From: Octopus vulgaris
Taxonomy: Eukaryota
Reading direction: 5' to 3'
Assembly: GCA_951406725.2 (NCBI GenBank)
Contig: OX597823.1
Location: forward strand, 65,658,001 to 65,722,000
DNA length: 64,000 nucleotides
The stretch's first letter is position 1. The number at the start of each line of letters is the position of its first letter. This document shows positions 10,140 through 62,010 of this stretch, in pieces. The position numbers and the translations under genes are program-made. Below the pieces are notes generated by a model, which worked only from the letters and a program-made list of their open reading frames with translations, was not told the origin of the DNA and made no database searches.

Positions 10140-12597
10140 ACATGTCTACTCTTCGTGACAGCAGGTGTTCGGCATAAACTCACAGTTCAGCAATACTCGG
10201 GCACTGGACAAGAGAGGGTAGAACAGCTTCATCGCTCTACGCGCTTCTCAGGCAGGCCCAGCTGACGGCACTTCCATGCCTGTAAAATTTAGCTCGAACA
10301 GGCAGTGCGCCTCGGTAGCACTGCCAGACAAAGGATTTTTAGAAGTTATCCATAGGACGAGGCCCGAAATTTCTCCGGTTAGTTCATTCCTCATTGACAC
10401 CCAGAGAACGTCGTCGCACTTTCCCTCCACTAGCCATCTATAGAACGCTAGAGTGGAACTACCACCCACCACATTACTTGCCTGGCGGAGGGCTGTGAGC
10501 GCTTGGCACCAAGCGATGTGTCAAGCGCCCTCATCCGTCTACGCCTAATCTAGGTTTGCAGCTCAGTCAAAGAGACGAGCTGTGGAAAGTGAGTCTGACA
10601 AACGGTAACCACACATGCTCATCTGCAAGGAAAAGCTGGAGATACCATAACCCCAGTGCATGTCTACGTATCAGTAACCACGGCATAACCAGCCCTCCAT
10701 TCAGCGGTTGTTGACAGCAGATGGAACCTGATCAGTGGAACCCGGCCCTTCCACAGATAGCAGAAGAGTAAGCGCACCAGCTTGAGCAACCAGCAAACGG
10801 AACAAGGGACGACGGTCAGGCGGTAATAGATAACGGATGCAATGAACGCATTCGCCTCCTCAGCATGATCTTTCAAGGACAGCTTCCTCTCGAGCCATTT
10901 TTGGGTGAGTTTGGCTACCCTGCTCGTCAAATCGTCCCAGATTTTCTTCACCTGGAGGTCTGGACTAAACCAAACTCCGAGCAATTTAACCGGACGCCCC
11001 AAACCTCTGTTGGACGGCATAGACTTGCCTTTCCAGGTGCCGTGTTGCAAACCCACTGACGTTTCCGCGTTAAATTTTGCTCCTGTCATCGCTTCATATT
11101 CTTGTAGTGCGTCGCCAATCAGGTCTATATGCATGCGGCTCGACACTATGGCAGTGATATCGTCAGCGTAAGCAGACTCACGTCAGTGTAAGTAGACACA
11201 CATCCTAGAACACGCAGGACACCCCTCAAAGCCTCCATCTTCCGGAGTAATGGCTCAAGAGTCAGTACATGTAGAAGAGAGTAGGGAGGGCACTCGTGAC
11301 AGACGCAAGATGCTGAATGGTTCCCACAGGTGATCATTCACCTGAACAACCGAGCAGATGCCGCTGTACAAAGCAGCAATCCAACCGCCGAAACTGGACG
11401 GAAATCGGCTGCCTCGAGGACAGCTGCGAAGTATTGATGGTCGACCCAATCAAAGGCTTTATATTAATCTAAATTGATCAGAGCCCCACTCATGTCGGCT
11501 TCGTTACCTACCCTATCTATGATGTAGCGCATGATGTGGAAGTTGTCGTGAATAGTTCTGGTTGGGATGACGTATAATTGCGCCTCGTCAATCAGCTTGT
11601 CCACAACAAGCGCCAACCTCTTGGATAACACCTTGGCTAAACGTCTTCCATTCTGCATTGAGCAGAGTGATAGGCCTGATGTTTTCTATAACACCTCCAT
11701 TGTTTGGGTCTTTCTCAGCAGTGCCACCTGCTCCGCGACAGACAAAAGTGAGAATTCTCCCATTCTGCTGCCAGTTGTAATAAACGTCTGCCACGAAGCC
11801 CACAAACAAGTCTAGCAGCAAAATTTAAAGCTCGTAGGGCAGACCAGACAAACCAGTAGTAGGCCCTCCAGGTACACACCGAAATCCGCTCTGTTATCCG
11901 CCCTATTATTCGTCCTGAACACTCGAGCAAACTGCTGCTGAAAAGTCGCACACATCTCTTTCGGTTCGAACACTTCATGTTCGTTCTGGACCATAAAAGA
12001 CGGAAGGGCGGCTTCATTGTCACTTTTCGCTTCCGCCACCGCGGGCCCATCGTGACACTTTCATTCCCTCCCCGATTAGTGACCGTGCCTTAGCTCTGAC
12101 AACGCAGCCTTCGTGTTTGGCGTCAAAAAATTAGTCGAGGGCCAACCTCGCCACCGACACGTCAGTCGTGATGCCTGTCCTAAGCGCCTCATCTAAATTT
12201 CTAACTAAATCTCCCCCTAATCTATTTCATTTTATCAAGAATGTCTTGCTAAACCTAATTGGTTCTAGCCGTATTGCCCTTTTAAGAGTAAACCACCAGA
12301 TGTTGTTGAAGATTGCGCCTGTCAATGCCCACTTAACTAATTCGATATCCCGTCTCTGTAACCTTGACACACCGGTAACGACGTGTGCAGTTTCCAGTAG
12401 CCGGGACCCTGTCTGTGAAGCCCATCTAAGTCGACCGTACAGATCATAAATTTGTGGTCTGTGGAGCCGACCATATGAAATTGTGGACACCCTATTTGTC
12501 CTTGTCAGCTGCATTACAAAACACTCTAAAAACGTTCTCGATGACCCGATGTAGATTGTCCAAGTCCACATTGGCACATTCGGGTAGTCAAGTCGGT
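10140..12597 (-). mobile_element. Decayed L1/Tx1-clade non-LTR retrotransposon (ORF2: RT and flanking regions), many frameshifts
   Basis: Minus-strand peptides IENIRPITLLNAE, LAKVLSKRLALVVDKL..IHDNFHIMRYII..GALINLD(Q.KAFD), AYADDIT, EAMTGAKFN..VKLLGVWF..WLERKLSLK are L1/Tx1 RT motifs. Confidence 0.8.
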
Positions 12598-12603
12598 ACC
12601 GTG

Positions 12604-12748
12604 AAGGCGCATGGCTCAGTGGTTAGAGCGTCGAGCTTATGATTGTGAGGTTGTAAGTTCGATTCCCGGACCGGGCTGCGTGTTTTGTTCTTGAGCAATA
12701 CACTTTATTTCACATTGCTCCAGTTAATTGCTTCAGCTGTAGAAATGA
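12604..12748 (+). mobile_element. tRNA-derived SINE (5' part)
   Basis: ggcgcatggctcagtggttagagcg (A box) ... gttcgattcccgg (B box), followed by non-tRNA body. The 3' part of the family is at 26468-26705. Confidence 0.75.
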
Positions 12749-14025: not shown

Positions 14026-14607
14026 AGAGAACAAAAATACTCTGCAAATATAACATCACAGAGAAAGATTTGCCTGAAATAAAAGAAAAGCTGAAGCAAG
14101 ATATCCTTGCCAAAGCTCAAAGGATCCGCCGGTACGAGAAACGCCAACGCTTCTTTGAACAAAACAAAAAGTTCAACTCCAACCCCAAAAAGTTCTACCA
14201 AGAACTGGGCAAAAATAAAATAGAAGTCACTGCAGCACCAACGGCAGAAGAATTGCAAGAATTCTGGTGAGAAATATGGTCGGCGAACGAACCACCAAAA
14301 AAAAGGAGTATCAAAATAACAAACTCGGCATCTGAACAACTTTGGACCCCCATAACAACTGAAGAGGTCACCCAGGCACTGCAAAGACTAAGCAACTGGA
14401 AGGCACCTGGGCATGACAAGATCCCCAACTTCTGGTTGAAATATCTAACAGAAATGCACAAAAAGCTGGCTGAAAACTTTAACAACGTACTAGCAGAGCC
14501 AGAGACAATGCCTGAATAGGCTCACGAAGGGGAAAACCATCTTAATTCCCAAATCAAATGAAACAGAAAAGCCAGAAAACTACAGACCAATAACCTGCCT
14601 CCCTACT

Positions 14608-15294
14608 ATGTTCAAGGCATTTACTGCAGTGATATCACAAAAGCTGAACAAGCACCTGGACGAAAACAAACTGTTCCCAGAAGAGCAGAAAGGATGCCGC
14701 AAAGGCTCATATGGCTGTAAAGATCAACTAATGTTTAATAAAGCCATAACTGAAGACAGCCACAGAAAGAAGAAAGGCCACAGTATGGCCTGGATTGACT
14801 ACAAAAAGGCGTTTGATAGCATCCCCCACACATGGATCCTCGAAACACCAGCCATTAACAAAGTAGCACCAACAATCATAAAATTCATAGAGCACTCTAT
14901 GAATAAATGGCAAACAGCCCTACACCTCCAAACAAAAGAGGGACTCATGAAAACCAAAGACATCCCCATTGGAAGAGGAATATTCCAGGGAGACACGCTC
15001 TCTCCACTCCTTTTCTGCTTGGCACTGTCACCGCTATCTGATATGCTAAATAGAACTGGATGCGGATATAAATGTTACGGCAAAACGATCAGCCACCTTT
15101 TATATATGGATGACCTAAAACTATACGCTGCAAATGACAAACAGCTGGAAACACTATTACAGACAGTTCATGGATTTACCAAAGAAATAGATATGAAATT
15201 TGGATTAGAAACATGCGCCAAAGTAACCATGAAAAGAGGAAAACTAGTTAAGAGTAACAACATCACACTAGATAAAACCAATGAAATAAAATAA
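14608..15294 (+). pseudogene. Reverse transcriptase domain of Dong-like element (frameshift upstream, premature stop)
   Basis: ORF track 228 aa with YMDD. The upstream segment 14026-14520 is in another frame with stops. Confidence 0.85.
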
Positions 15295-15524
15295 TTAGAC
15301 CAAAGCCAAACTTACAAATACTTAGGAATCCATGAACTAGAAAGAGAAAATAAAAAAAAGAATATTATAGACGAGTTAGATCAATACTAAACACAGAGCC
15401 CAATGCTAAAAACAAGATAATAGGTATCAACACTTTAGCTGTCCCAGTTATAAGTTACAGCTACAATATCCTTAACTGGACACGAAATGAACTGACCAAA
15501 ATAGATAGGAAAACAAGAAAAATA

Positions 15525-16646
15525 ATGACAGGATCTAGGATGCATCACCCAAAATCTGACATAGAAAGACTATATATACAACGTATAGAAGGTGGTAGAG
15601 GCCTTATACAGCTGGAAAACTACTATAAAATAACCACCATAGGACTGCAAAAATATCTACTTCAGAAGGAAGGAAAACTGATCCAAATAGCAGCAAAACA
15701 CGAGCAAAACAAAAAACTGTTCTCAGTATTTAAGGAAGCTGACAAATACAAACAAGAAATCATACCACCTAATAAACATGAAGAAGAAGAAGAAGATGGA
15801 GAAACAACAAAAGCTATAAAACAAGTGAAATCCAAACTAAAAATAGAACAGCAACGAACCATGATAAAACGATGGCAAGAAAAGCCCCTTCATGGTAAAT
15901 ACTGGACTAAACTAAACGCAAAAGAAATAGACAAAGAAAAATCCCAGCAATGGTTGAGAAGCTCAGGACTCAAAGCAGAAACAGAGGGATTTTTAATTGC
16001 AGCACAAGACCAAAGCCTCCCCACCAGAAATTACCAAAAACATGTAATGAAAAGAAATATTACAAGTAACTGCAGAATATGTGGAGATGGACAAGAAACA
16101 ATAAATCATAATATCTCTAGCTGCCCAGTCCTGGCTAAGAAGGAATATATTCACAGACATGACAAAGTTGGAACCTACATACATTGGAAGCTATGCCAAC
16201 ATTATGGAATAACAATAGAAAAAAGATGGTATAGGCACACACCAGAAAAGGTCACAGAAAACGAGAAAGCAACCATACTCTGGGATATGCCGATACACAC
16301 AGATAGAGAAATGAAGGCCAACAGACCAGATATAGTTGTCAGAGATCATGAAGAAAAAAAATGCTTCCTAATTGATGTATCAATACCGGCTGATGACAAC
16401 CTTTCTCTAAAAGAAATGGAGAAACTCTCAAAATACAAAGACCTGGAAATAGAGGTAACTAGAATGTGGAATCTGAAAACAGAAACAGAAACAAGTCCTA
16501 TCATAGTAGGTGCATTAGGCATGATAAAAAAATATTCAGACAAATACATAACAAAAACACCAGGACTTACAAACACATATAACATACAGAAAATTGCACT
16601 ACTAGGCACTGCACACATCCTACGCAGAACACTTTCCATACAATAA
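15525..16646 (+). CDS. C-terminal part of Dong-like ORF: thumb, zinc knuckle, PD-(D/E)xK endonuclease
   Basis: 373-aa open segment with GGRGL, CCHC, RHD and RPD..D..K motifs. Confidence 0.8.
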   Translation: MTGSRMHHPKSDIERLYIQRIEGGRGLIQLENYYKITTIGLQKYLLQKEGKLIQIAAKHEQNKKLFSVFKEADKYKQEIIPPNKHEEEEEDGETTKAIKQVKSKLKIEQQRTMIKRWQEKPLHGKYWTKLNAKEIDKEKSQQWLRSSGLKAETEGFLIAAQDQSLPTRNYQKHVMKRNITSNCRICGDGQETINHNISSCPVLAKKEYIHRHDKVGTYIHWKLCQHYGITIEKRWYRHTPEKVTENEKATILWDMPIHTDREMKANRPDIVVRDHEEKKCFLIDVSIPADDNLSLKEMEKLSKYKDLEIEVTRMWNLKTETETSPIIVGALGMIKKYSDKYITKTPGLTNTYNIQKIALLGTAHILRRTLSIQ

Positions 16647-35286: not shown

Positions 35287-35411
35287 TAGTAATGCCCTGT
35301 ATATAATATAATTAATATATTTAAGTGAAAAAATTGGTGGACTTTTTCTTTTATGAGGTTTTTCACGCTAACTACTTGATAAATTCTTATAACGATTTTA
35401 GCCTATTTTTA

Positions 35412-35460
<49 letters not shown>

Positions 35461-35466
<6 letters not shown>

Positions 35467-35888
35467 AATTAAGGACTGAACACGAAAAGTGGACAGTCAA
35501 CATGCTAGATATAGACGTCAAATCGCCATTCACCACAAAAGATTATGTTCTCAAATCAAACTCAACACAAAACCATAGCAATAAACAAGTGAAAAATATA
35601 CGAAATAAAATAATTACCCATGTACTAATTAGTTTCAGCTGTTATTTTCCGCAAGGAAAACTGCAGCCATCATCAGCATGGTCCGTTATAAATGCAATTT
35701 GCTGGACTAGATGCAAACACGATACCGAAATATCGCGTGCATGGAGTTCAGCCTATTACATTTGAATATATCTTTCAAATGCCTTTACTTTGGCGCGTTG
35801 AAACCCGAGAAAACTAGCCTGCAGCTAATAATTAGCAGCAGTCAATTTATCGGTTAGAGAACATATTTATTTATATAAAATTAATTAA
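35461..35888 (-). mobile_element. Inverted partial copy of the 506-bp hammerhead unit
   Basis: Reverse complement of the array unit. Hammerhead on the minus strand at 35618-35681. Confidence 0.9.
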
Positions 35889-38550
35889 TTGACTGTCCAC
35901 TTTTCGTGTTCAGTCCTTAATTGGTATATATAAATATTTTAATCTTCGGATTCTTTTTTAATATGCTAGACCACTGGTCTTAATTGATAAATATCAATTT
36001 CTACCCTTAATTAATTTTATATAAATAAATATGTTCTCTAACCGATAAATTAACTGCTGCTAATTATTAGCTGCAGGCTAGTTTTCTCGGGTTTCAACGC
36101 GCCAAAGTAAAGGCATTTGAAAGATATATTCAAATGTAATAGGCTGAACTCCATGCACGCGATATTTCGGTATCGTGTTTGCATCTAGTCCAGCAAATTG
36201 CATTTATAACGGACCATGCTGATGATGGCTGCAGTTTTCCTTGCGGAAAATAACAGCTGAAACTAATTAGTACATGGGTAATTATTTTATTTCGTATATT
36301 TTTCACTTGTTTATTGCTATGGTTTTGTGTTGAGTTTGATTTGAGAACATAATCTTTTGTGGTGAATGGCGATTTGACGTCTATATCTAGCATGTTGACT
36401 GTCCACTTTTCGTGTTCAGTCCTTAATTGGTATATATAAATATTTTAATCTTCGGATTCTTTTTTAATATGCTAGACCACTGGTCTTAAATGATAAATAT
36501 CAATTTCTACCCTTAATTAATTTTATATAAATAAATATGTTCTCTAACCGATAAATTAACTGCTGCTAATTATTAGCTGCAGGCTAGTTTTCTCGGGTTT
36601 CAACGCGCCAAAGTAAAGGCATTTGAAAGATATATTCAAATGTAATAGGCTGAACTCCATGCACGCGATATTTCGGTATCGTGTTTGCATCTAGTCCAGC
36701 AAATTGCATTTATAACGGACCATGCTGATGATGGCTGCAGTTTTCCTTGCGGAAAATAACAGCTGAAACTAATTAGTACATGGGTAATTATTTTATTTCG
36801 TATATTTTTCACTTGTTTATTGCTATGGTTTTGTGTTGAGTTTGATTTGAGAACATAATCTTTTGTGGTGAATGGCGATTTGACGTCTATATCTAGCATG
36901 TTGACTGTCCACTTTTCGTGTTCAGTCCTTAATTGGTATATATAAATATTTTAATCTTCGGATTCTTTTTTAATATGCTAGACCACTGGTCTTAATTGAT
37001 AAATATCAATTTCTACCCTTAATTAATTTTATATAAATAAATATGTTCTCTAACCGATAAATTAACTGCTGCTAATTATTAGCTGCAGGCTAGTTTTCTC
37101 GGGTTTCAACGCGCCAAAGTAAAGGCATTTGAAAGATATATTCAAATGTAATAGGCTGAACTCCATGCACGCGATATTTCGGTATCGTGTTTGCATCTAG
37201 TCCAGCAAATTGCATTTATAACGGACCATGCTGATGATGGCTGCAGTTTTCCTTGCGGAAAATAACAGCTGAAACTAATTAGTACATGGGTAATTATTTT
37301 ATTTCGTATATTTTTCACTTGTTTATTGCTATGGTTTTGTGTTGAGTTTGATTTGAGAACATAATCTTTTGTGGTGAATGGCGATTTGACGTCTATATCT
37401 AGCATGTTGACTGTCCACTTTTCGTGTTCAGTCCTTAATTGGTATATATAAATATTTTAATCTTCGGATTCTTTTTTAATATGCTAGACCACTGGTCTTA
37501 ATTGATAAATATCAATTTCTACCCTTAATTAATTTTATATAAATAAATATGTTCTCTAACCGATAAATTAACTGCTGCTAATTATTAGCTGCAGGCTAGT
37601 TTTCTCGGGTTTCAACGCGCCAAAGTAAAGGCATTTGAAAGATATATTCAAATGTAATAGGCTGAACTCCATGCACGCGATATTTCGGTATCGTGTTTGC
37701 ATCTAGTCCAGCAAATTGCATTTATAACGGACCATGCTGATGATGGCTGCAGTTTTCCTTGCGGAAAATAACAGCTGAAACTAATTAGTACATGGGTAAT
37801 TATTTTATTTCGTATATTTTTCACTTGTTTATTGCTATGGTTTTGTGTTGAGTTTGATTTGAGAACATAATCTTTTGTGGTGAATGGCGATTTGACGTCT
37901 ATATCTAGCATGTTGACTGTCCACTTTTCGTGTTCAGTCCTTAATTGGTATATATAAATATTTTAATCTTCGGATTCTTTTTTAATATGCTAGACCACTG
38001 GTCTTAATTGATAAATATCAATTTCTACCCTTAATTAATTTTATATAAATAAATATGTTCTCTAACCGATAAATTGACTGCTGCTAATTATTAGCTGCAG
38101 GCTAGTTTTCTCGGGTTTCAACGCGCCAAAGTAAAGGCATTTGAAAGATATATTCAAATGTAATAGGCTGAACTCCATGCACGCGATATTTCGGTATCGT
38201 GTTTGCATCTAGTCCAGCAAATTGCATTTATAACGGACCATGCTGATGATGGCTGCAGTTTTCCTTGCGGAAAATAACAGCTGAAACTAATTAGTACATG
38301 GGTAATTATTTTATTTCGTATATTTTTCACTTGTTTATTGCTATGGTTTTGTGTTGAGTTTGATTTGAGAACATAATCTTTTGTGGTGAATGGCGATTTG
38401 ACGTCTATATCTAGCATGTTGACTGTCCACTTTTTGTGTTCAGTCCTTAATTGGTATATATAAATATTTTAATCTTCGGATTCTTTTTTAATATGCTAGA
38501 CCACTGGTCTTAATTGATAAATATCAATTTCTACCCTTAATTAATTTTAT
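35889..38550 (+). repeat. Tandem array of 506-bp units (5.3 copies, near identical), retrozyme/Penelope pLTR-like
   Basis: Period 506 (ORF track 36130, 36636, 37142, 37648, 38154). Only isolated substitutions seen. Ends in (TA)n. Confidence 0.95.
36214..36277 (+). ncRNA. Type I hammerhead ribozyme (also at 36720, 37226, 37732, 38238; minus copy 35618-35681)
   Basis: Stem I ccatg/catgg; CTGATGA 36219-36225; stem II ggctg..ttttcc-ttgc-ggaaaa..cagct; GAAA 36259-36262; palindromic stem III actaattagt; GUA cleavage after 36272. Confidence 0.88.
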
Positions 38551-53886: not shown

Positions 53887-54094
53887 CATTATATATATAT
53901 ATATATATATATATATACTAGCATTATGACCCGTCGTTGCCGGGTCATAGTGCTAGTGCATGTATATATCTGTATATATATGTGGAAATATTACATGTAC
54001 ATCTATATATATACATCTATTCATAAAATACAAAGTTATATCTTGATATCGCTGGTGATAACAATACTCAAAATATATAACAGACTGGAATTGT

Positions 54095-54399
54095 AAGCCC
54101 GTCTCTTGCAATTTCGATCAATTGTATCTTGTCCTCCCTCTTCTATAGAAGCGTGGCTACAATCCAGCCTACCTCAACTTCGGGGGGGCATTTAAAATTT
54201 TCATCCGGCACGTCCTTCGTCCCAGATATAAAGGTAAAAATAAAATATTTCCACTTTACAAGTTCGAGTCGAGTACCCCCTTGCACGCTCAGTTGACTCG
54301 AACCTTGCTTCTATTGTGGCGAATTTACCGCCTCTGATTAGATGTCTTTCATAGTCGCACCAAGACACTTTTCGATGGTGCTTTCCTCCATGTTATGTC
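54095..54399 (-). pseudogene. Downstream half of an old decayed gag-like ORF (same family as the array proteins)
   Basis: Manual translation across frameshifts: MEESTIEKCLGATMKDI / IRGGKFATIEARFESTERAR / NILFLPLYLGRRTCRMKILNAPP / EVEVGWIVATLL*KREDKIQLIE. This aligns with RGSKYGTVVVHF..LLPTYLNRRITRIRVEGVPPNVEAEWIVAAVI. Confidence 0.8.
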
Positions 54400-56070
54400 T
54401 TTATTACCCACCAGGGGCTACGAAGAATGGCGGACATAACAAAACATGGGGGACATAGAACAATATGATTAAATTTATGAGCAAATGAAAATGAAAAAAT
54501 GATAATATGAAAGCGATGCTAACGGCCCCCTCCGCCAGCATCACTTACTTGTCCTTTTGTTTTCACTGTCACCTGAATGTTCATTCCCAATACGAAGACC
54601 ATCCATATCCATTCTTACTCCGAAACTGTCCTCCATATATTCCACAAATTCATCGCTCATTCTTGTATCTTTCACCTCCCAATTCTCCCTTTCACACCTC
54701 AACACAAACTCATCTATATTCTTCTTTTCCAGCACTGCATATCTGGTCCCATCCATTTCATACCATTCATACTCCTCCATTACCCTTGTAACTTCTTTCT
54801 GTTCAGTCACAATATAAATGTTCGGCCTGGGTTCGTTTTCAAACTCTTGTCTGTCTGTATTGTTATTTTCTTTTGTTTTCTTGTTGGAGGGGAGCGGGTG
54901 GGTTCACTGTCTGCAGGGGAAGGGTGGGATTCAGAGGGTGTGGGTGGTGTTGGGGTGGGTTGGGGCTTCACACAGTTTTTATTTTTCTTTCTTTTTCTCT
55001 TTTTTCTGCCTTCTTCCCTTTCTTGTTGCATCTCCTCTTCTTCTGTCGTTTCTTTTTCCCTTTGGTTCTCTTTGGTTTCTTCCTCTTTTGGGGCTTCCGC
55101 GACGATTTCCTTTTCTTTTTCCTTTAGTGGGGGAGGGCAGTAGGTTCTTATGTGACCCCTCAGGCCACACTTGTAGCACCTGGGCGCCCTACCCTCCACC
55201 CACACTCTCATAATAATATTTCCAGTTTTTATACTGTCCGTAAGCTTTTCTATAACTTCCGCCTCCGTCTGTATGTTCATTACTAGTGTGGCACCTCTCA
55301 CGCCTTCATATTTCATAATGGCGTGGAGGATGTCCACTTTATCTTCATTTCCTTTGATAACCGCAGCCGTTATTAATTCGCCCTCTAGGTGTGGAGGTAT
55401 TCCTTTCACCCTAATTCTGGTGGTCCTTCTATTCAAATACGAGGGGAACAAGTAAAACTTTTCTGTACTCACCACCTTGGCTGCTATATTCCTGGCTGCT
55501 TTCTCACTTTTAAATTGTACCGTTATGGTTCCATATTCTAATCCTTTTGTCATGTACACAATTTCTTCTCCTGTCCGTTTGAAAGCCTCTTCAATTGCTT
55601 CCATGTTAATCACTTCCATTTTTCTACCTCCATTCATAAATACTTTATATTTAATGGTTCTACGATGGAACCAGTCTCCGCGCCCTGCTAGAGGCAACAG
55701 CTCAACCTCTCCGTTCTCCTCCTCCTTCATGAACTCCTGGAAGTCCGTCAACTTAAGCCAGGTCTATCTCTTTTTCTGTTGACTTCTTCGTTATACGTGC
55801 ATAGGTGCTTTCCATTTTTTTCACCGCCAACTCCTCCTCAGATGTCAACGAATTTTCAGAGAAATTTCTCCCTTCCATCTCATCCGTTTGGTAGAGGCGG
55901 CTCATAGTCGCCTCAGACCGAAAAACGGCCTCCCGAACAGAAAACGTGCGACGCACAGAACCAGTGCGACGCGAAACCGCACCAACCGACGTTCCAATTC
56001 CGCAACCACAATTCACTCTTTGTTGTTTTTTCTTTTTTAACCGAATTTTACAGAGCGCAAAAAAACGCGT
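54400..56070 (-). mobile_element. Unit A: ORF1-only (HAL1-like) non-LTR retroelement
   Basis: Starts cgcgtttttttgcgctc, ends gcccctggtgggtAATAAA. Encodes a CCHC protein and no RT. Confidence 0.8.
54541..55905 (-). CDS. L1/Tx1 ORF1(gag)-like protein, CX2CX4HX4C knuckle, in three frame segments (55753-55905, 54807-55751, 54541-54810)
   Basis: VEGRAPRCYKCGLRGHIRTYCP. The N-terminal piece (TYARITKKSTEKEIDLA|KLTDF) and C-terminal piece align with units B/D across single-base frameshifts. Confidence 0.75.
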
Positions 56071-56222
56071 ATTTCTTTATTACCCACTAAGGGGCTACGA
56101 AGAATGGCGGACATAACAAAACATGGGGACATAGAACATTATAATTAAACTTTATGAAAATGAATTGTTAAACGAAAAAAATGATAAAATGAAAGCGATA
56201 CCAACGGCCCCGTCCGTCAGCA

Positions 56223-56492
56223 TCACTTACTTGTCCTTTGTTTTTCATAGTCACTTGAATGTTCTTTGCCAATACGAATAAATTCCATATCCATTCTTAC
56301 TCCGAAATACTCATCCATATTTTCCACGAATTCATCGCTCATTCTTATATCTTTCACCTCCCAATTCTCCCTTTCACACCTCCCCATAAACTCACCTATG
56401 TTCTTCTTTTCAATCACAGCATACCTAGTCTCTCCAACATCATACCATTTATACTCTTCCATTAGACTTTTAACTTCTTTCTGTTCAGTCAT
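56223..56492 (-). CDS. Conserved ~89-aa C-terminal domain or small second ORF of unit B
   Basis: MTEQKEVKSLMEEYKWYDVGETRYAVIEKK is conserved with unit A 54541-54810 through conservative substitutions. Confidence 0.65.
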   Translation of the reverse strand: MTEQKEVKSLMEEYKWYDVGETRYAVIEKKNIGEFMGRCERENWEVKDIRMSDEFVENMDEYFGVRMDMEFIRIGKEHSSDYEKQRTSK

Positions 56493-56520
56493 AGTACAAA
56501 TGTACGACCTGGGTTCGATT

Positions 56521-57585
56521 TCAATCTCTTGTGTGTGTGTATTCTTTTTTTCTTTTGTTTTCTTGTTGGGGGGAGCGGGTGGGTTCAATGTCTGCATGGA
56601 TAGGGTGGGACTCAGAGGGTGTGGGAGGTTTTGGGGTAGATTGGAGTTCCATATTATTTTCTTTTTTTCCACATATTCTTCTCTTCCTCTTACTTCCAGC
56701 TTCCTTCCATTTCTGTGTATTCTCTTCCTCTGTTTCCTTCTCCTCTGGTTTCTGCTTCTCTCTCTCTGGTTCGGAATCCATTTCTTTCCCTGGGGGAGGG
56801 CAGAAGGCTCTTATGTGACCCCTCAGGCCACACTTGTAACAACGTGGAGCCCTGCCCTCCACCCACACTCTCATGATCACTTCTCCCAGTCTGATGCTTT
56901 CCGTCAGGTCCACCAGTACCTCGGTCTCTGCCTGTACGTTCAGCTCCACTGTTACGCCTCTCCAGCCCTCGGACTTAACCGAGGCATGGAGAATATCCAC
57001 TTCGTCCTCGTGGCCGCTGATCACAGCCGCCACAATCCATTCTGCCTCCACGTTTGGTGGCACTCCCTCCACCCTTATTCGTGTAATCCTCCTGTTTAAA
57101 TACGTAGGTAACAGTGTTACCTTTTCTGACTTCACCGCCTTCGCTGCCATCTTCCTCGCTGCAGATTCACTTTTAAAGTGCACAACTACGGTCCCGTACT
57201 TGGATCCTCGAGTCAGAAAATTTATTTCCTCCTCAGTTCTTCGCAGGGCTTCCTCTATCCATTCCATGGATACAACTTCTACCCTCTTCCTTTCGTTTGC
57301 GCACACCCTGTAAACAATGGTCCTCTTATCATACCATTCTTTTCTCCTGGGTGTCGGTGATAGTTCCACCTCACCGCTTTCCTTTTTCATGTATTTCTGG
57401 TAACTTGGCAACTTGGCCATGTCGACCCCTTTCTCTTCCGCCTTCTTGGTTACACCGGCATAGGTATAACCCAGCTTCTGATCCATTTTCCTCACTGCTA
57501 TTTCTAGCTCCTCCTCAGACGTAGACAAGTCTGTTAAAGACTCAAAAACTGCAGCCGTATCTCCCATCAGGTAGGGGTTGTCCAT
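56521..57585 (-). CDS. gag/ORF1-like CCHC protein (354 aa)
   Basis: ATG start, TYAGVTKK, RRM-like middle region, CYKCGLRGHIRAFC, acidic/basic tail. Confidence 0.8.
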   Translation of the reverse strand: MDNPYLMGDTAAVFESLTDLSTSEEELEIAVRKMDQKLGYTYAGVTKKAEEKGVDMAKLPSYQKYMKKESGEVELSPTPRRKEWYDKRTIVYRVCANERKRVEVVSMEWIEEALRRTEEEINFLTRGSKYGTVVVHFKSESAARKMAAKAVKSEKVTLLPTYLNRRITRIRVEGVPPNVEAEWIVAAVISGHEDEVDILHASVKSEGWRGVTVELNVQAETEVLVDLTESIRLGEVIMRVWVEGRAPRCYKCGLRGHIRAFCPPPGKEMDSEPEREKQKPEEKETEEENTQKWKEAGSKRKRRICGKKENNMELQSTPKPPTPSESHPIHADIEPTRSPQQENKRKKEYTHTRD

Positions 57586-58073
57586 TTCCTTCTGTCTGAC
57601 AGACCGAAAACGGCCGCCAAAACAGAAAAAGTGTAACGCGCTGAACGAGCGAAACGCGAAACCGCGTCAACGCCGTTCAGAATTTCCACAACAACAACAA
57701 CGCTTTTTGTTCTTTTTTACCGAATTTTCAGGAGCGCAAAAAAACGCGATTTTTTTATTACCCACAAGGGGCCACGAAGAGGGGGACATTACAAGACGGG
57801 ACATGGGGTACATAAAGTAAAAATAAAATATGAAGTAAAAGATGAATTTATATGTAATGAGATGGAACGGCTTACGAACCCCCAACTCGCAGTTCCGTTT
57901 AAAATACAATTATACATTTCATATATTCCAGTTCAAAATACAATTTTACAGTTACATATATTCCAGTTCACAGTACAATAATTTTACAATTTTACATGTT
58001 AACATTACATATATTCCTGTTCAAAAACACAACTTTACATCAAATAATTTTACAAGTAACAATTCTAATTCTT

Positions 58074-58439
58074 TTACATTAGACACTCGTCCGTCATATA
58101 ATCCAATAGGTCCGTTTGATCTATTACATCTGGTAATTTATCATACCGTACATAATGCATTATATGCATAGCATGATATATCTTTTTTAATTTTGTGTAT
58201 GTCTCCTTGTCTATAATGACGCCTTTTACATCTTCACCATACAGTTTTGGGTTCACCTTCACCCTGACCAACCCTTTCTTACCTACAAGTCTCTTTTCCA
58301 CTTCTGTATTCTTGATATACATCACAACTGCCTTCAAGTTTTTTCCTGTAGGCCTTCTTCCATATTTACACGATTCCAATTGTTCGTTCACTCTTGTCTC
58401 CCATTCTTGTTCAAACTCTGTCCTTGGTCGCTCTCTCAC
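58074..58439 (-). CDS. C-terminal domain or second ORF of unit C (121 aa)
   Basis: Open frame directly after the gag ORF. The frame stays open upstream through an A-rich tract. Confidence 0.55.
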   Translation of the reverse strand: MRERPRTEFEQEWETRVNEQLESCKYGRRPTGKNLKAVVMYIKNTEVEKRLVGKKGLVRVKVNPKLYGEDVKGVIIDKETYTKLKKIYHAMHIMHYVRYDKLPDVIDQTDLLDYMTDECLM

Positions 58440-58447
58440 CTTTTCTT

Positions 58448-59404
58448 TTACTTCCTGTTCTTTTTTTCTTCTCTCTCTTCTGCTATCTTGCTTTTGATTT
58501 TTTTCTTTTTTATATCTTTCGGTGGTGATTCCACCCTTGATCTCTTCTTGTCTTCTGTTTTTTCCTCTTCTGCACTTGCTCGTTCTTCCTCATTTAACTG
58601 CTCCTCCATTTGTGTTTCCTCCGCTTTCGCTTCCTCCACACACGCTTCTTTACACTCCTCTATCACAACCTCTGGTGCTTTTGTTTTTTCTCGCGGGCAC
58701 ACATCCTTCATGTGGCCCCTCGATTTACAGTTATAGCAAATTGGGGGTCTTCCCTCTACCACAACTCGGAGCCGTGTTTCGTCAGGGTAGACCAACTCCT
58801 CCGGGATGTTGTACAGGTCTCGCACGGTTATGTGTGCCAGAACCTGCACCGTATATCCCCACCACTTCACCTCTGCTGACTTCTCCACCTTCAGTACCTC
58901 CACATCATCCTTGCAGTTAAACAGCACTGCTGCCAGCAACCTTTCCATATTAAATTCGGGTGAGATTCTATTGATTCTCATCCTCACTGCTCTCCTTCCG
59001 CAGTAACTTGGTAGCAAAGTCCACTTATCCGATTTCAAAATTCTTGTAGCGTTCTTTTTTGCCTCCTCTTCTGTTTTAAAATACACCACTACCGTGGCAT
59101 ACTTCCTTCCTCTTTTAAAAAATGCTGGTTCACCCTCAATTTCCTTCAGACACCTTTCCACTTCTTCCATTTCCGCTACTTCAATCTTCTTCGACTCCAC
59201 GCACCACGTCCTGTACGTTATAGTACGCTTCTCTGCACTGCTTTCCTCCTCCTCGGACGGTGTGACTATCACACAGTCACCCTCCCTCTTTAAACTGTCG
59301 AAATACTTCTGTAAAGTCTTCTGTTCGACCATCACCTCCTCCATTTCCAGTTCACCGGCAACCAGGCCTCTGCCTGCCGCTCGCGCGTAAGTCTGCTCTT
59401 GCAT
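58448..59404 (-). CDS. gag/ORF1-like CCHC protein, divergent subfamily
   Basis: MQEQTYARAA..KRTITYR..RGRKYATVVVYF..LLPSYCGRR..VEGRPPICYNCKSRGHMKDVCP. Confidence 0.8.
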   Translation of the reverse strand: MQEQTYARAAGRGLVAGELEMEEVMVEQKTLQKYFDSLKREGDCVIVTPSEEEESSAEKRTITYRTWCVESKKIEVAEMEEVERCLKEIEGEPAFFKRGRKYATVVVYFKTEEEAKKNATRILKSDKWTLLPSYCGRRAVRMRINRISPEFNMERLLAAVLFNCKDDVEVLKVEKSAEVKWWGYTVQVLAHITVRDLYNIPEELVYPDETRLRVVVEGRPPICYNCKSRGHMKDVCPREKTKAPEVVIEECKEACVEEAKAEETQMEEQLNEEERASAEEEKTEDKKRSRVESPPKDIKKKKIKSKIAEEREEKKNRK

Positions 59405-59546
59405 TTTCAAGAAAAAATTATTCCACGTCCTCCAACGAACTCGAACTCACAACCTCTTTACTCGAAATAAACACACCAGAATAAACACACCAGAATAACT
59501 CCAACTAACTAACTCAAAAAAAAACACGGGAGCCGAAAAAACGCGT

Positions 59547-61277
59547 ATTTCTTTATTACCCACTAAGGGGCTACGAAGAATGGCGGACATAACAAAACAT
59601 GGGGACATAGAACATTATAAATAAACTTTATGAACATGAATTGTTAAACGAAAAAATGATAAAATGAAAGCGATACCAACGGCCCCGTCCGTCAGCATCA
59701 CTTACCTGTCCTTTGTTTTTCATAGTCACTTGAATGTTCTTTGTCAATACGAATAAATTCCATATCCATTCTTACTCCGAAATACTCATCCATATTTTCC
59801 ACGAATTCATCGCTCATTCTTATATCTTTCACCTCCCAATTCTCCCTTTCACACCTCCCATAAACTCACCTATGTTCTTCTTTTCAATCACAGCATACCT
59901 AGTCTCTCCAACATCATACCATTTATACTCTTCCATTAGACTTTTAACTTCTTTCTGTTCAGTCATAGTACAAATGTACGGCCTGGGTTCGATTTCAATC
60001 TCTTGTGTGTGTGTATTCTTTTTTTTCTTTTGTTTTCTTGTTGGGGGGAGCGGGTGGGTTCAATGTCTGCATGGATAGGGTGGGACTCAGAGGGTGTGGG
60101 AGGTTTTGGGGTAGATTGGAGTTCCATATTATTTTCTTTTTTTCCACATATTCTTCTCTTCCTCTTACTTCCAGCTTCCTTCCATTTCTGTGTATTCTCT
60201 TCCTCTGTTTCCTTCTCCTCTGGTTTCTGCTTCTCTCTCTCTGGTTCGGGATCCATTTCTTTCCCTGGGGGAGGGCAGAAGGCTCTTATGTGACCCCTCA
60301 GGCCACACTTGTAACAACGTGGAGCCCTGCCCTCCACCCACACTCTCATGATCACTTCTCCCAGTCTGATGCTTTCCGTCAGGTCCACCAGTACCTCGGT
60401 CTCTGCCTGTACGTTCAGCTCCACTGTTACGCCTCTCCAGCCCTCGGACTTAACCGAGGCATGGAGAATATCCACTTCGTCCTCGTGGCCGCTGATCACA
60501 GCCGCCACAATCCATTCTGCCTCCACGTTTGGTGGCACTCCCTCCACCCTTATTCGTGTAATCCTCCTGTTTAAATACGTAGGTAACAGTGTTACCTTTT
60601 CCGACTTCACCGCCTTCGCTGCCATCTTCCTCGCTGCAGATTCACTTTTAAAGTGCACAACTACGGTCCCGTACTTGGATCCTCGAGTCAGAAAATTTAT
60701 TTCCTCCTCAGTTCTTCGCAGGGCTTCCTCTATCCATTCCATGGATACAACTTCTACCCTCTTCCTTTCGTTTGCGCACACCCTGTAAACAATGGTCCTC
60801 TTATCATACCATTCTTTTCTCCTGGGTGTCGGTGATAGTTCCACCTCACCGCTTTCCTTTTTCATGTATTTCTGGTAACTTGGCAACTTGGCCATGTCGA
60901 CCCCTTTCTCTTCCGCCTTCTTGGTTACACCGGCATAGGTATAACTCAGCTTGTCTTCCAATTTCCTTGCTGCCATTTCTAGCTCCTTCTCAGACGTAGG
61001 CAAGTCTGATAAAGACTCGAAAACTCCAGCCTTTTCCTCCATCAGCTTCACTGCAATTGCCTGTTCCAGTTCCTCATCCGTCGTGGACAAGTCTGTTAGA
61101 GACTCATAGTCCATTTCCTTCTGTCTGACAGACCGAAAACGGCCGCCAAAACAGAAAAAGTGTAACGCGCCGAACGAGCGAAACGCGAAACCGCGTCAAC
61201 GCCGTTCAGAATTTCCACAACAACAACAACGCTTTTTGTTCTTTTTTACCGAATTTTCAGGAGCCGAAAAAACGCGA
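59547..61277 (-). mobile_element. Unit D: ORF1-only retroelement (B subfamily)
   Basis: Near-identical to unit B except for a duplicated N-terminal ESLTDLST..EELE motif. Confidence 0.8.
59963..61114 (-). CDS. gag/ORF1-like CCHC protein (383 aa)
   Basis: ORF track. The C-terminal domain (59698-59966) carries a 1-nt deletion relative to unit B. Confidence 0.8.
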   Translation of the reverse strand: MDYESLTDLSTTDEELEQAIAVKLMEEKAGVFESLSDLPTSEKELEMAARKLEDKLSYTYAGVTKKAEEKGVDMAKLPSYQKYMKKESGEVELSPTPRRKEWYDKRTIVYRVCANERKRVEVVSMEWIEEALRRTEEEINFLTRGSKYGTVVVHFKSESAARKMAAKAVKSEKVTLLPTYLNRRITRIRVEGVPPNVEAEWIVAAVISGHEDEVDILHASVKSEGWRGVTVELNVQAETEVLVDLTESIRLGEVIMRVWVEGRAPRCYKCGLRGHIRAFCPPPGKEMDPEPEREKQKPEEKETEEENTQKWKEAGSKRKRRICGKKENNMELQSTPKPPTPSESHPIHADIEPTRSPQQENKRKKRIHTHKRLKSNPGRTFVL

Positions 61278-61278
61278 C

Positions 61279-61335
61279 CTTTTTTCCTCTACATTGTATA
61301 CTTTATAGACAATAGTCTTTTCTTTGATTTCATTT
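61279..61335 (-). pseudogene. Upstream half of the old gag-like ORF split by the array
   Basis: NEIKEKTIVYKVYNVEEKR aligns with KRTIVYRVCANERKR (B/D) and EKRTITYRTWCVESKK (C). Confidence 0.7.
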
Positions 61336-61619
61336 TTTATTATCCATCTGGACTATTCCATTTCTGCACGCTAATTTTATTTTTAATTTATTCTCATTCA
61401 TGTGAAACCATTTATTCAAGTTCAAGTTAATAATGCAATTTTATACCAATTGCTATTTTTACTTTTGTTATGTTACAATTATATTATACTTTAGTTTGAT
61501 TTTAATTATTACTTACTACATATAATTCAATTGTTATTATTATTTTTATTGTTAAAGTGAAAGTATCTGACATAAAATAGAGAAATGTTTTTGTTTCACT
61601 TTTTACACGTAATACTGAA

Positions 61620-61915
61620 ATAGTGGAGAAGATATGATATTGCTATGGGCTCGCTCTAGGCAAGAAGTTGAACATTGCTTTTGCCCATGAAACTACATGG
61701 ACCCTAAGTAAGGCATGTGTAAAATTTGAATGAAATTGATTGTGTAGTTCTCAAGTTTTAGGGAATCGTAGTGGAGAAGATATGATATTGCTGTGGGCTC
61801 GCCCTAGGCAAAAAGTTAATCATTTTTTTGCCGATGATACTCCCCGGACCCTATGTAAGGCATGTGTAAAATTTGAATGAAATTGGTTGTGCAGTTCTCA
61901 AGTTTTAGGGAACCA
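61620..61915 (+). repeat. 147-bp tandem duplication (Helitron subterminal repeat)
   Basis: tagtggagaagatatgatattgct...ctcaagttttagggaa occurs twice. Confidence 0.85.
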
Positions 61916-61945
61916 AACAGACAGACAGACACACACGTTCTCAGT

Positions 61946-62010
<65 letters not shown>

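Follow-up and report, generated by a model that had tools for sequence, protein, structure and literature searches.

Long interspersed nuclear elements (LINEs) of the Tx1 type that settle in other transposons together with riders have already been described (PMC4494074), as have LINEs of three other clades that retain only the first open reading frame, ORF1 (PMC5786205). In PMC4494074, Tx1-Mar and the short interspersed element (SINE) SINEU of crocodilians occupy Mariner-N4_AMi, Tx1 of Xenopus occupies Tx1D, Tx1-9_AMi lies in Harbingers, and Tx1-8_Crp and Tx1-4_AMi lie in long terminal repeat (LTR) elements. The non-autonomous LINEs with ORF1 described in PMC5786205 and PMC5753468 include HAL1 (L1), HeT-A (Jockey) and Ag-Sponge (CR1). 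Here we describe a 64,000-nucleotide stretch of the 2.8-Gb Octopus vulgaris genome (assembly GCA_951406725.2, contig OX597823.1, positions 65,658,001 to 65,722,000 of the forward strand; hereafter the window), in which four ORF1-only elements belonging to three families form an array inside a Helitron-like repeat. We put at about 80% the probability that these elements sit at a fixed base in the fossil ORF1 of a likely Helitron with more than 1,000 copies, and that an L1/Tx1-type LINE likely copied them in trans.

The octopus system resembles Tx1-Mar and SINEU, as described in PMC4494074, in that a sequence-specific non-LTR element and its non-autonomous riders use a fixed site in another transposon, tandem copies are separated by target-site duplications (TSDs), a host offers more than one site, and host-derived 5' extensions occur, which are similarly seen in SINEU-2. 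It differs in that the riders encode the ORF1 protein (ORF1p) and are not SINEs, that they land in a Helitron-like host at a site within a captured ORF1 from the same broad clade, and that arrays mix several families and reach 12 or more units. With HAL1, HeT-A and Ag-Sponge the octopus riders share an ORF1p-only content, the lack of a reverse transcriptase and a 3' end common with a full LINE, whereas the passages on such elements in PMC5786205 and PMC5753468 list no Tx1-clade example. HAL1 proper, the mammalian L1-derived element with a Transposase_22 ORF1p, was rejected as an identification, as no Transposase_22 match was obtained; the riders are HAL1-like in their working only. HeT-A forms head-to-tail arrays, and the octopus arrays differ from it in being interstitial and site-specific, not telomeric.

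The titles and abstracts searched contained no description of ORF1-only Tx1 arrays or of a captured ORF1 serving as target; that coverage did not extend to Repbase or to the supplementary files of PMC4494074 and PMC13282606, where these families may already be recorded. The passages of PMC13282606 covered here give only counts of L1-Tx1 elements and Helitrons. The combination of parts, including a landing site within a captured kin ORF1, was not found in the literature searched.

The array and its host repeat

Across the genome, families A and B, a further ORF1-only family, E, and a 5.2-kb LINE, D, all insert at the base that the window array occupies. The features of the window locus are, from left to right:

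53917..53957, strand unassigned: terminal hairpin of the host repeat, with a 17-bp stem and a 7-nt loop (DNA fold z = -6.35, 0/200 shuffles as stable).
53918..54393, minus strand: 3' part of the host repeat, ending in CTAG at 53918-53921 and then T on the minus strand, as judged from a sharp end common to 16 copies and BLAST of 30 loci.
54095..54393, minus strand: downstream half of the fossil ORF1, matching profile positions 41-138 in three frames with stops, and extending as far as another landing site, of greater age, at about 54095.
54382..54393, minus strand: target word ACATGGAGGAAA, single in the window; elsewhere it is doubled, as the 12-bp TSD that flanks the autonomous LINE D and family E.
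54394..56069, minus strand: unit A, an ORF1-only element, 3'-most in the array; its tail, with one substitution, ends at 54394.
56070..57748, minus strand: unit B, an ORF1-only element, 94.7% identical to unit B'.
57749..59545, minus strand: unit C, an ORF1-only element of a distant family (33-39% at the amino acid level against A and B).
59546..61279, minus strand: unit B', an ORF1-only element, 5'-most in the array, with predicted RRM-like domains and a CCHC knuckle.
61280..61341, minus strand: upstream half of the fossil ORF1, matching profile positions 16-35 and bounded by a ~540-bp deletion.
61342..61950, minus strand: 5' part of the host repeat, containing a pair of 147-bp repeats (61621-61912) as well as a short CAGA/GTCT microsatellite.

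The array, from 54394 to about 61279, thus comprises four minus-strand units of 1.7-1.8 kb arranged head to tail in the element order B', C, B, A, each with a single zinc-knuckle ORF and no reverse transcriptase. In a self-comparison, A and B were 72-77% identical and C resembled them at the tail only. The ORF of unit A is frameshifted in the window copy. The head of unit B', GGTCGCG, begins at 61279, where a host origin of the first G is possible. A TATAAAG motif at 61301-61307 on the minus strand precedes the first base of the array by 28 nt.

The tail AATAAAGAAATA is also found at two internal junctions of the array and at A tails elsewhere. Host sequence restarts at 54393 (ACATGG). The last base of the array is therefore 54394 and not 54403, as a preliminary description of the window implied, and its other limit lies at about 61279. 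That description had read CTTT at 54399-54402 and 61279-61282 (plus strand) as a 4-bp duplication flanking the insertion, with the two flanks rejoining in frame once the array is removed. CTTT does stand at both places, but it is not a duplication, because natural empty sites show that the left AAAG (minus strand) belongs to the tail and that host bases are gone. The 8-12 bases found in empty sites between an A-run and ACATGG are missing at the window array and amount to a small target deletion. The 'H-N' codons of the rejoined reading are supplied by five tail bases (54398-54394) that replace lost host bases, so the joined peptide is chimeric at the join. Its match of frame is arithmetic luck. 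Of 1,045 exact empty sites, the first 100 were checked, and only 23 keep the reading frame across the site; the downstream ORF1 motifs are spread over three frames with stops.

Two earlier proposals did hold, namely that the flanks are homologous to the array proteins and that the array is a discrete insertion nested within a decayed ORF1 relative: uninterrupted copies exist, and both flanks carry colinear ORF1 matches above the control. Against a profile of 10 natural ORF1 cores, with 600 shuffled-flank translations as control (best score 1.7 bits), the upstream flank matched positions 16-35 (5.1 bits), and the downstream flank matched positions 41-56, 57-94, 84-115 and 110-138 (1.3, 18.0, 22.3 and 10.3 bits). 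The upstream homology stops ~60 nt from the junction, at the ~540-bp deletion relative to long host copies. This deletion took the fossil's 5' untranslated region and N-terminal codons in the window's host subfamily; longer host copies retain them.

The decayed relative is not a fifth array unit, as had been supposed, but part of a dispersed repeat with shared ends, ~1.15 kb in a short form and 1.7 kb in a long form. Its fossil cargo corresponds to the 5' half of an element with an ORF1 of the RRM-RRM-CCHC type, with 30-36% identity to A, B and D over 77-95 residues. In the ORF1 tree the fossil is a long separate branch outside the A/B, C, D and E groups, a placement that is unsure with 44% of columns filled. 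No intact source was found among the best 150 of 13,260 fossil-peptide matches, where the longest open frame was 240 amino acids; the 30 loci read were all host copies, and distant intact relatives may exist. The host offers two further landing sites, one at each end of the fossil (near window position 54095, used in loci L190, L191 and L194; and L008, L217). Their users are older D-like LINEs with 79-94% identity to D, and the lineage may have shifted its site within the host cargo.

We consider the host itself likely to be a non-autonomous Helitron. A 5' TC following A is a hallmark of Helitrons, and AGAT on the window plus strand, which is A|TC on the element strand, ends 14 of 20 host copies; the exact 5' end in the window is masked by a (TA)n run reaching 62016. 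At the 3' end the host repeat has the CTRR and nearby hairpin of non-autonomous Helitrons. Like DINE-1/HINE elements in PMC4067079, on which the assignment partly draws beside general Helitron hallmarks, it has a 3' CTAG with hairpin, an A|T insertion context, central tandem repeats, a microsatellite and a captured gene fragment, and lacks coding capacity. It differs from them in that the hairpin stem extends into the terminal CTAG and that the cargo is a retroelement 5' half acting as a landing pad. A host without the fossil, which could represent an ancestor, was seen at 1 of 30 loci (L267), with 1 exact match genome-wide, and is probably a deletion rather than an ancestor.

The array protein is predicted to be a type I ORF1p of non-LTR elements. 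In a structure model from the 10 natural cores (mean predicted local distance difference test score, pLDDT, of 87), the best Foldseek matches were tandem RRM proteins (E 7e-5). VIA-align matched the first domain to the La RRM over 80 aligned residues (Z 9.2, root-mean-square deviation 2.5) and the second to RRM or ACT folds at Z about 8; one CCHC knuckle follows the RRM-like domains. This composition is consistent with Tx1 in non-mammalian animals (PMC5203782). The 'gag-coding' label of the preliminary description is accordingly dropped. A Gag of LTR retrotransposons or retroviruses was rejected in view of the beta-rich, RRM-like model and of a self-comparison without LTRs; the knuckle alone matches nucleocapsids. 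Pfam gave only sub-threshold zinc-knuckle matches on the array ORFs and no Transposase_22, and a protein search with the ORF1 profile returned one longer protein, from an octopus. Nonsynonymous and synonymous rates (dN/dS) were 0.29/1.87 for B versus A and 0.16/1.24 for E versus E-like; dN far below dS indicates that the ORF1 of these half-elements was kept working by purifying selection.

Use of the landing site across the genome

A search with the left flank gave 2,270 candidates, and 24 of the 30 loci read were uninterrupted, while the other 6 (window included) had an element tail at the same base. Exact empty-site matches numbered 1,045 genome-wide (control 0). Filled 3' junctions comprised 109 with ACATGG and 11 with ACCTGG, and there were 57 filled 5' junctions (reversed-pattern controls 0). 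Empty sites comprised 371 ACATGG and 657 ACCTGG. Occupancy was 109/480 for ACATGG (22.7%) compared to 11/668 for ACCTGG (1.6%; p 2e-32). The GAGG variant near the 5' junction, an A-to-G difference at window 61286-61287, was present at 13 of 57 filled and 3 of 100 empty sites (p 1.5e-4), an enrichment that could stem from donor-templated sequence or from RNA editing.

The host was also met when arrays were chosen by protein and not by flank. A search with the B core returned 13,803 candidates, the best 150 of which formed 57 clusters; of the 56 clusters other than the window, 40 had host sequence at one end or both: 38 had it upstream, 23 had it directly downstream, and 21 belong to both groups. 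The remaining 16 had a target-like word only (3) or neither (13).

Element tails led to the same base. Exact tails numbered 55 for A, 27 for C and 166 for D/E. Among the first 30 A tails, 15 ran directly into host, 12 into the target word and then other sequence, and 3 elsewhere; the first 30 D/E tails met host (16), a target-like word and the next element (8), the second host site (3) or other sequence (3). Targeting of this host site is strongly supported by these observations. The 27 C tails met a sibling's 5' head (17), a host piece and then a head (2) or another target (8), and never the host word. Family C therefore likely uses sibling heads as its site, which suggests a second kind of kin-targeting.

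B and C arrays were also seen in other recurring targets (L115, L120, L152, L153; L124/L125, L154/L155, L161; L166, L168; L149; L278-L283, L290-L291), several with target words repeated between units and L124/L125 within SINE-like sequence. Further ORF1 families, about 27-33% identical to B, stand beside B arrays (L116:3556-4161, L161:1952-2557). No RNA run was listed among the sequencing runs with these sequences. The host-to-B 5' junction was spanned by one contig, from a run guessed to be RNA, which speaks for presence only, is not locus-specific and is not evidence of expression; empty-site ends occurred in two runs, again as presence only and not locus-specific.

A candidate helper LINE and competing histories

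LINE D stands at the 3' end of several arrays and encodes ORF1 and a 1,132-amino-acid ORF2 with Exo_endo_phos, RVT_1 and zf-RVT domains. Such an ORF2 downstream of ORF1, with an APE endonuclease, a reverse transcriptase and a zinc finger at its C terminus, is the make-up of an L1/Tx1-type LINE, and the closest solved structure is human L1 ORF2p (E 6e-65). A protein search with ORF2 gave 122 relatives, mostly unnamed, with fish hypothetical proteins as the nearest named and no named Tx1 reference among them; from its architecture and general features of the clade, D is a putative Tx1 element. D shows the target-sequence preference of that clade and, like family E, is flanked by the 12-bp target duplicate. 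Thirteen exact matches to D/E 5' junctions, 10 of which were read, keep the whole upstream target and the 12-mer, whereas A/B/C-headed arrays share a 5' junction without the 8-12 target bases.

The 3' tail core GTGGGTAATAA is common to all families, and ~45 nt of tail are alike in C, D and E (83-96%). The ORF1-only elements have a single ORF1 and no ORF2, a discrete 5' head and 3' tail, and many dispersed copies, and like HAL1-like elements they share the 3' end with an autonomous partner. Their ORF1s are only 32-35% identical to that of D, which indicates old lineages and not recent deletions of D. The shared tail and site suggest that D likely mobilises A, B and C in trans. Tail hairpins in A, B and C were not significant (z -2.0, -0.5 and -1.2). 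The shared-tail pattern had 25,011 matches, nearly all to a ~220-bp SINE in the 30 loci read (L031-L060), and is unusable as an array census. This SINE shares its 3' tail with the LINE and the ORF1-only families, and some copies are tandem.

We propose that D ORF2 would nick the target and reverse-transcribe any RNA with the shared tail, by target-primed reverse transcription. Donor RNAs would start in the upstream host, and the end of the complementary DNA would probably anneal to the new site, such that the donor's deletion is copied and the 5' junction becomes uniform. In many cases an internal unit opens with 15-70 nt from the upstream part of the host; these host-derived starts and the GAGG enrichment are in keeping with donor RNAs whose 5' ends lie in the host and which serve as template for the new junction. 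Arrays likely grow mostly unit by unit, as every insertion leaves a usable site, either the host word on the 3' side (A, D, E and some B) or a sibling 5' head (C and some B).

Arrays might instead arise mainly in one step each, through template jumping from RNA to RNA or through copying of multi-unit read-through RNAs, which we regard as possible but doubtful. In favour of such single events, the A/B/C junctions lack target spacers and the families follow a preferred order (C, then B, then A, then E/D). Rare identical junctions also recur on different contigs (L101/L102, L157, L169; L121, L150), indicating that some multi-unit cassettes moved together. However, linkage between B and A neighbours was not significant (Mantel rho 0.25, p 0.11, 14 pairs/loci), which favours stepwise growth, A and B occur as solo insertions (L017, L135, L144, L146), and target duplicates separate D and E units.

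The suggestion that the family targets its own kin stands with regard to the site and needs modification with regard to the kin. The kin-derived fossil is carried by a high-copy Helitron-like repeat, and the target word is absent from the active units A-D, where the best match has 12-15 mismatches in 30 nt (the match in E is the TSD within the slice used). The fossil ORF1 is most likely an abundant, harmless landing pad and not a victim, comparable to Mariner-N4_AMi for Tx1-Mar (PMC4494074). In a fuller scenario, which we think unlikely, a retroelement in a retroelement in a Helitron would form three layers: a LINE lineage evolved to cut the ORF1 of a related family, a Helitron took up that 5' half and made it a pad in a thousand copies, and a guild of ancient ORF1-only parasites stacks by rule, some homing on the fossil and C on sibling heads, with read-through RNA at the element ends setting target choice. 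It is similarly improbable, and in our judgement rather more so, that the helper endonuclease evolved to cut the ORF1 of a rival family, with Helitron capture multiplying the site later. Such kin warfare would account for a site within ORF1-derived sequence, for two further landing sites at the fossil ends and for the lack of an intact copy of the fossil's family among the best 150 matches. Against it, the target word occurs in no active family, no insertion in the junction list lies at the homologous place of an active unit's ORF1, relatives also use unrelated repeats, and it is common for elements of the Tx1 clade to take abundant transposons as their targets (PMC4494074).

We consider it very improbable that one old insertion in one host copy was spread by rolling-circle copying of the Helitron, a history in which no targeting is needed. 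The filled hosts do cluster in one subfamily and share the short-form deletion and the uniform 5' junction. To compare elements with their hosts, the last 600 nt of the element were used, limited to copies more than 95% identical to the reference (A 9, B 9 and D 13 of 38 filled loci). Elements were more alike than the adjoining hosts in 36/36 A pairs (98.7 vs 94.9%), 36/36 B pairs (99.7 vs 95.1%) and 77/78 D pairs, that is, younger than their hosts in 149/150 pairs, which indicates independent insertions later than host dispersal. In a host tree of 37 filled and 52 empty copies, the filled ones needed 9 changes (shuffled mean 28.6) and formed a single clade in 0/200 bootstrap trees. Empty copies also occur within the same subfamily, and different families (A, B, D, E) adjoin the same base. 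Finally, the original account of a fifth decayed unit in place, split by a 4-bp target duplication and rejoining in frame, is hardly credible: CTTT at both places and the colinear ORF1 homology on both sides agree with it, but AAAG is tail, empty sites hold 8-12 extra bases, only 23/100 keep the frame, and the flank is a dispersed repeat.

Several points weigh against targeted insertion with D as helper. Sixteen of the 56 clusters lack a long host match; some of the ends were not reached, and other recurring targets number at least four, besides the 8/27 C tails that lie elsewhere. Filled hosts are concentrated in one host subfamily, so that subfamily membership, like donor-templated bases, confounds the allele effect, and the window host groups with ACCTGG-type empties yet reads ACATGG. 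The B-A Mantel test was small, and the rare junctions identical between contigs belong here too. The case for D as helper consists of the shared tail and site, and as D leaves a duplication and A/B/C a deletion, another helper is possible.

Other features of the window and significance

Elsewhere in the window, another retroelement lies at 14494-16646 (plus strand), with RVT_1 (E 2e-28) and a weak zf-RVT, flanked by AAT microsatellites. Decayed ORF2 fragments at 10664-12622 (minus strand) looked D-ORF2-like by eye, with no Pfam match for 10667-11182, and a 506-bp unit, noticed through its recurring ORFs, stands in about six tandem copies at ~35300-38500.

In annotation, the octopus arrays and the repeat that carries them will be mistaken for Gag genes or unknown repeats. 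They constitute a natural, young and countable system, in which one site is empty in more than 1,000 copies and filled in at least 120, with two target alleles that differ 14-fold in occupancy. The compact, sequence-specific LINE, of which intact copies exist, is a candidate for site-specific insertion tools. The system bears on how a LINE endonuclease adopts a new target, on why elements with nothing but ORF1 retain it under selection, and on how head-to-tail arrays arise outside telomeres.

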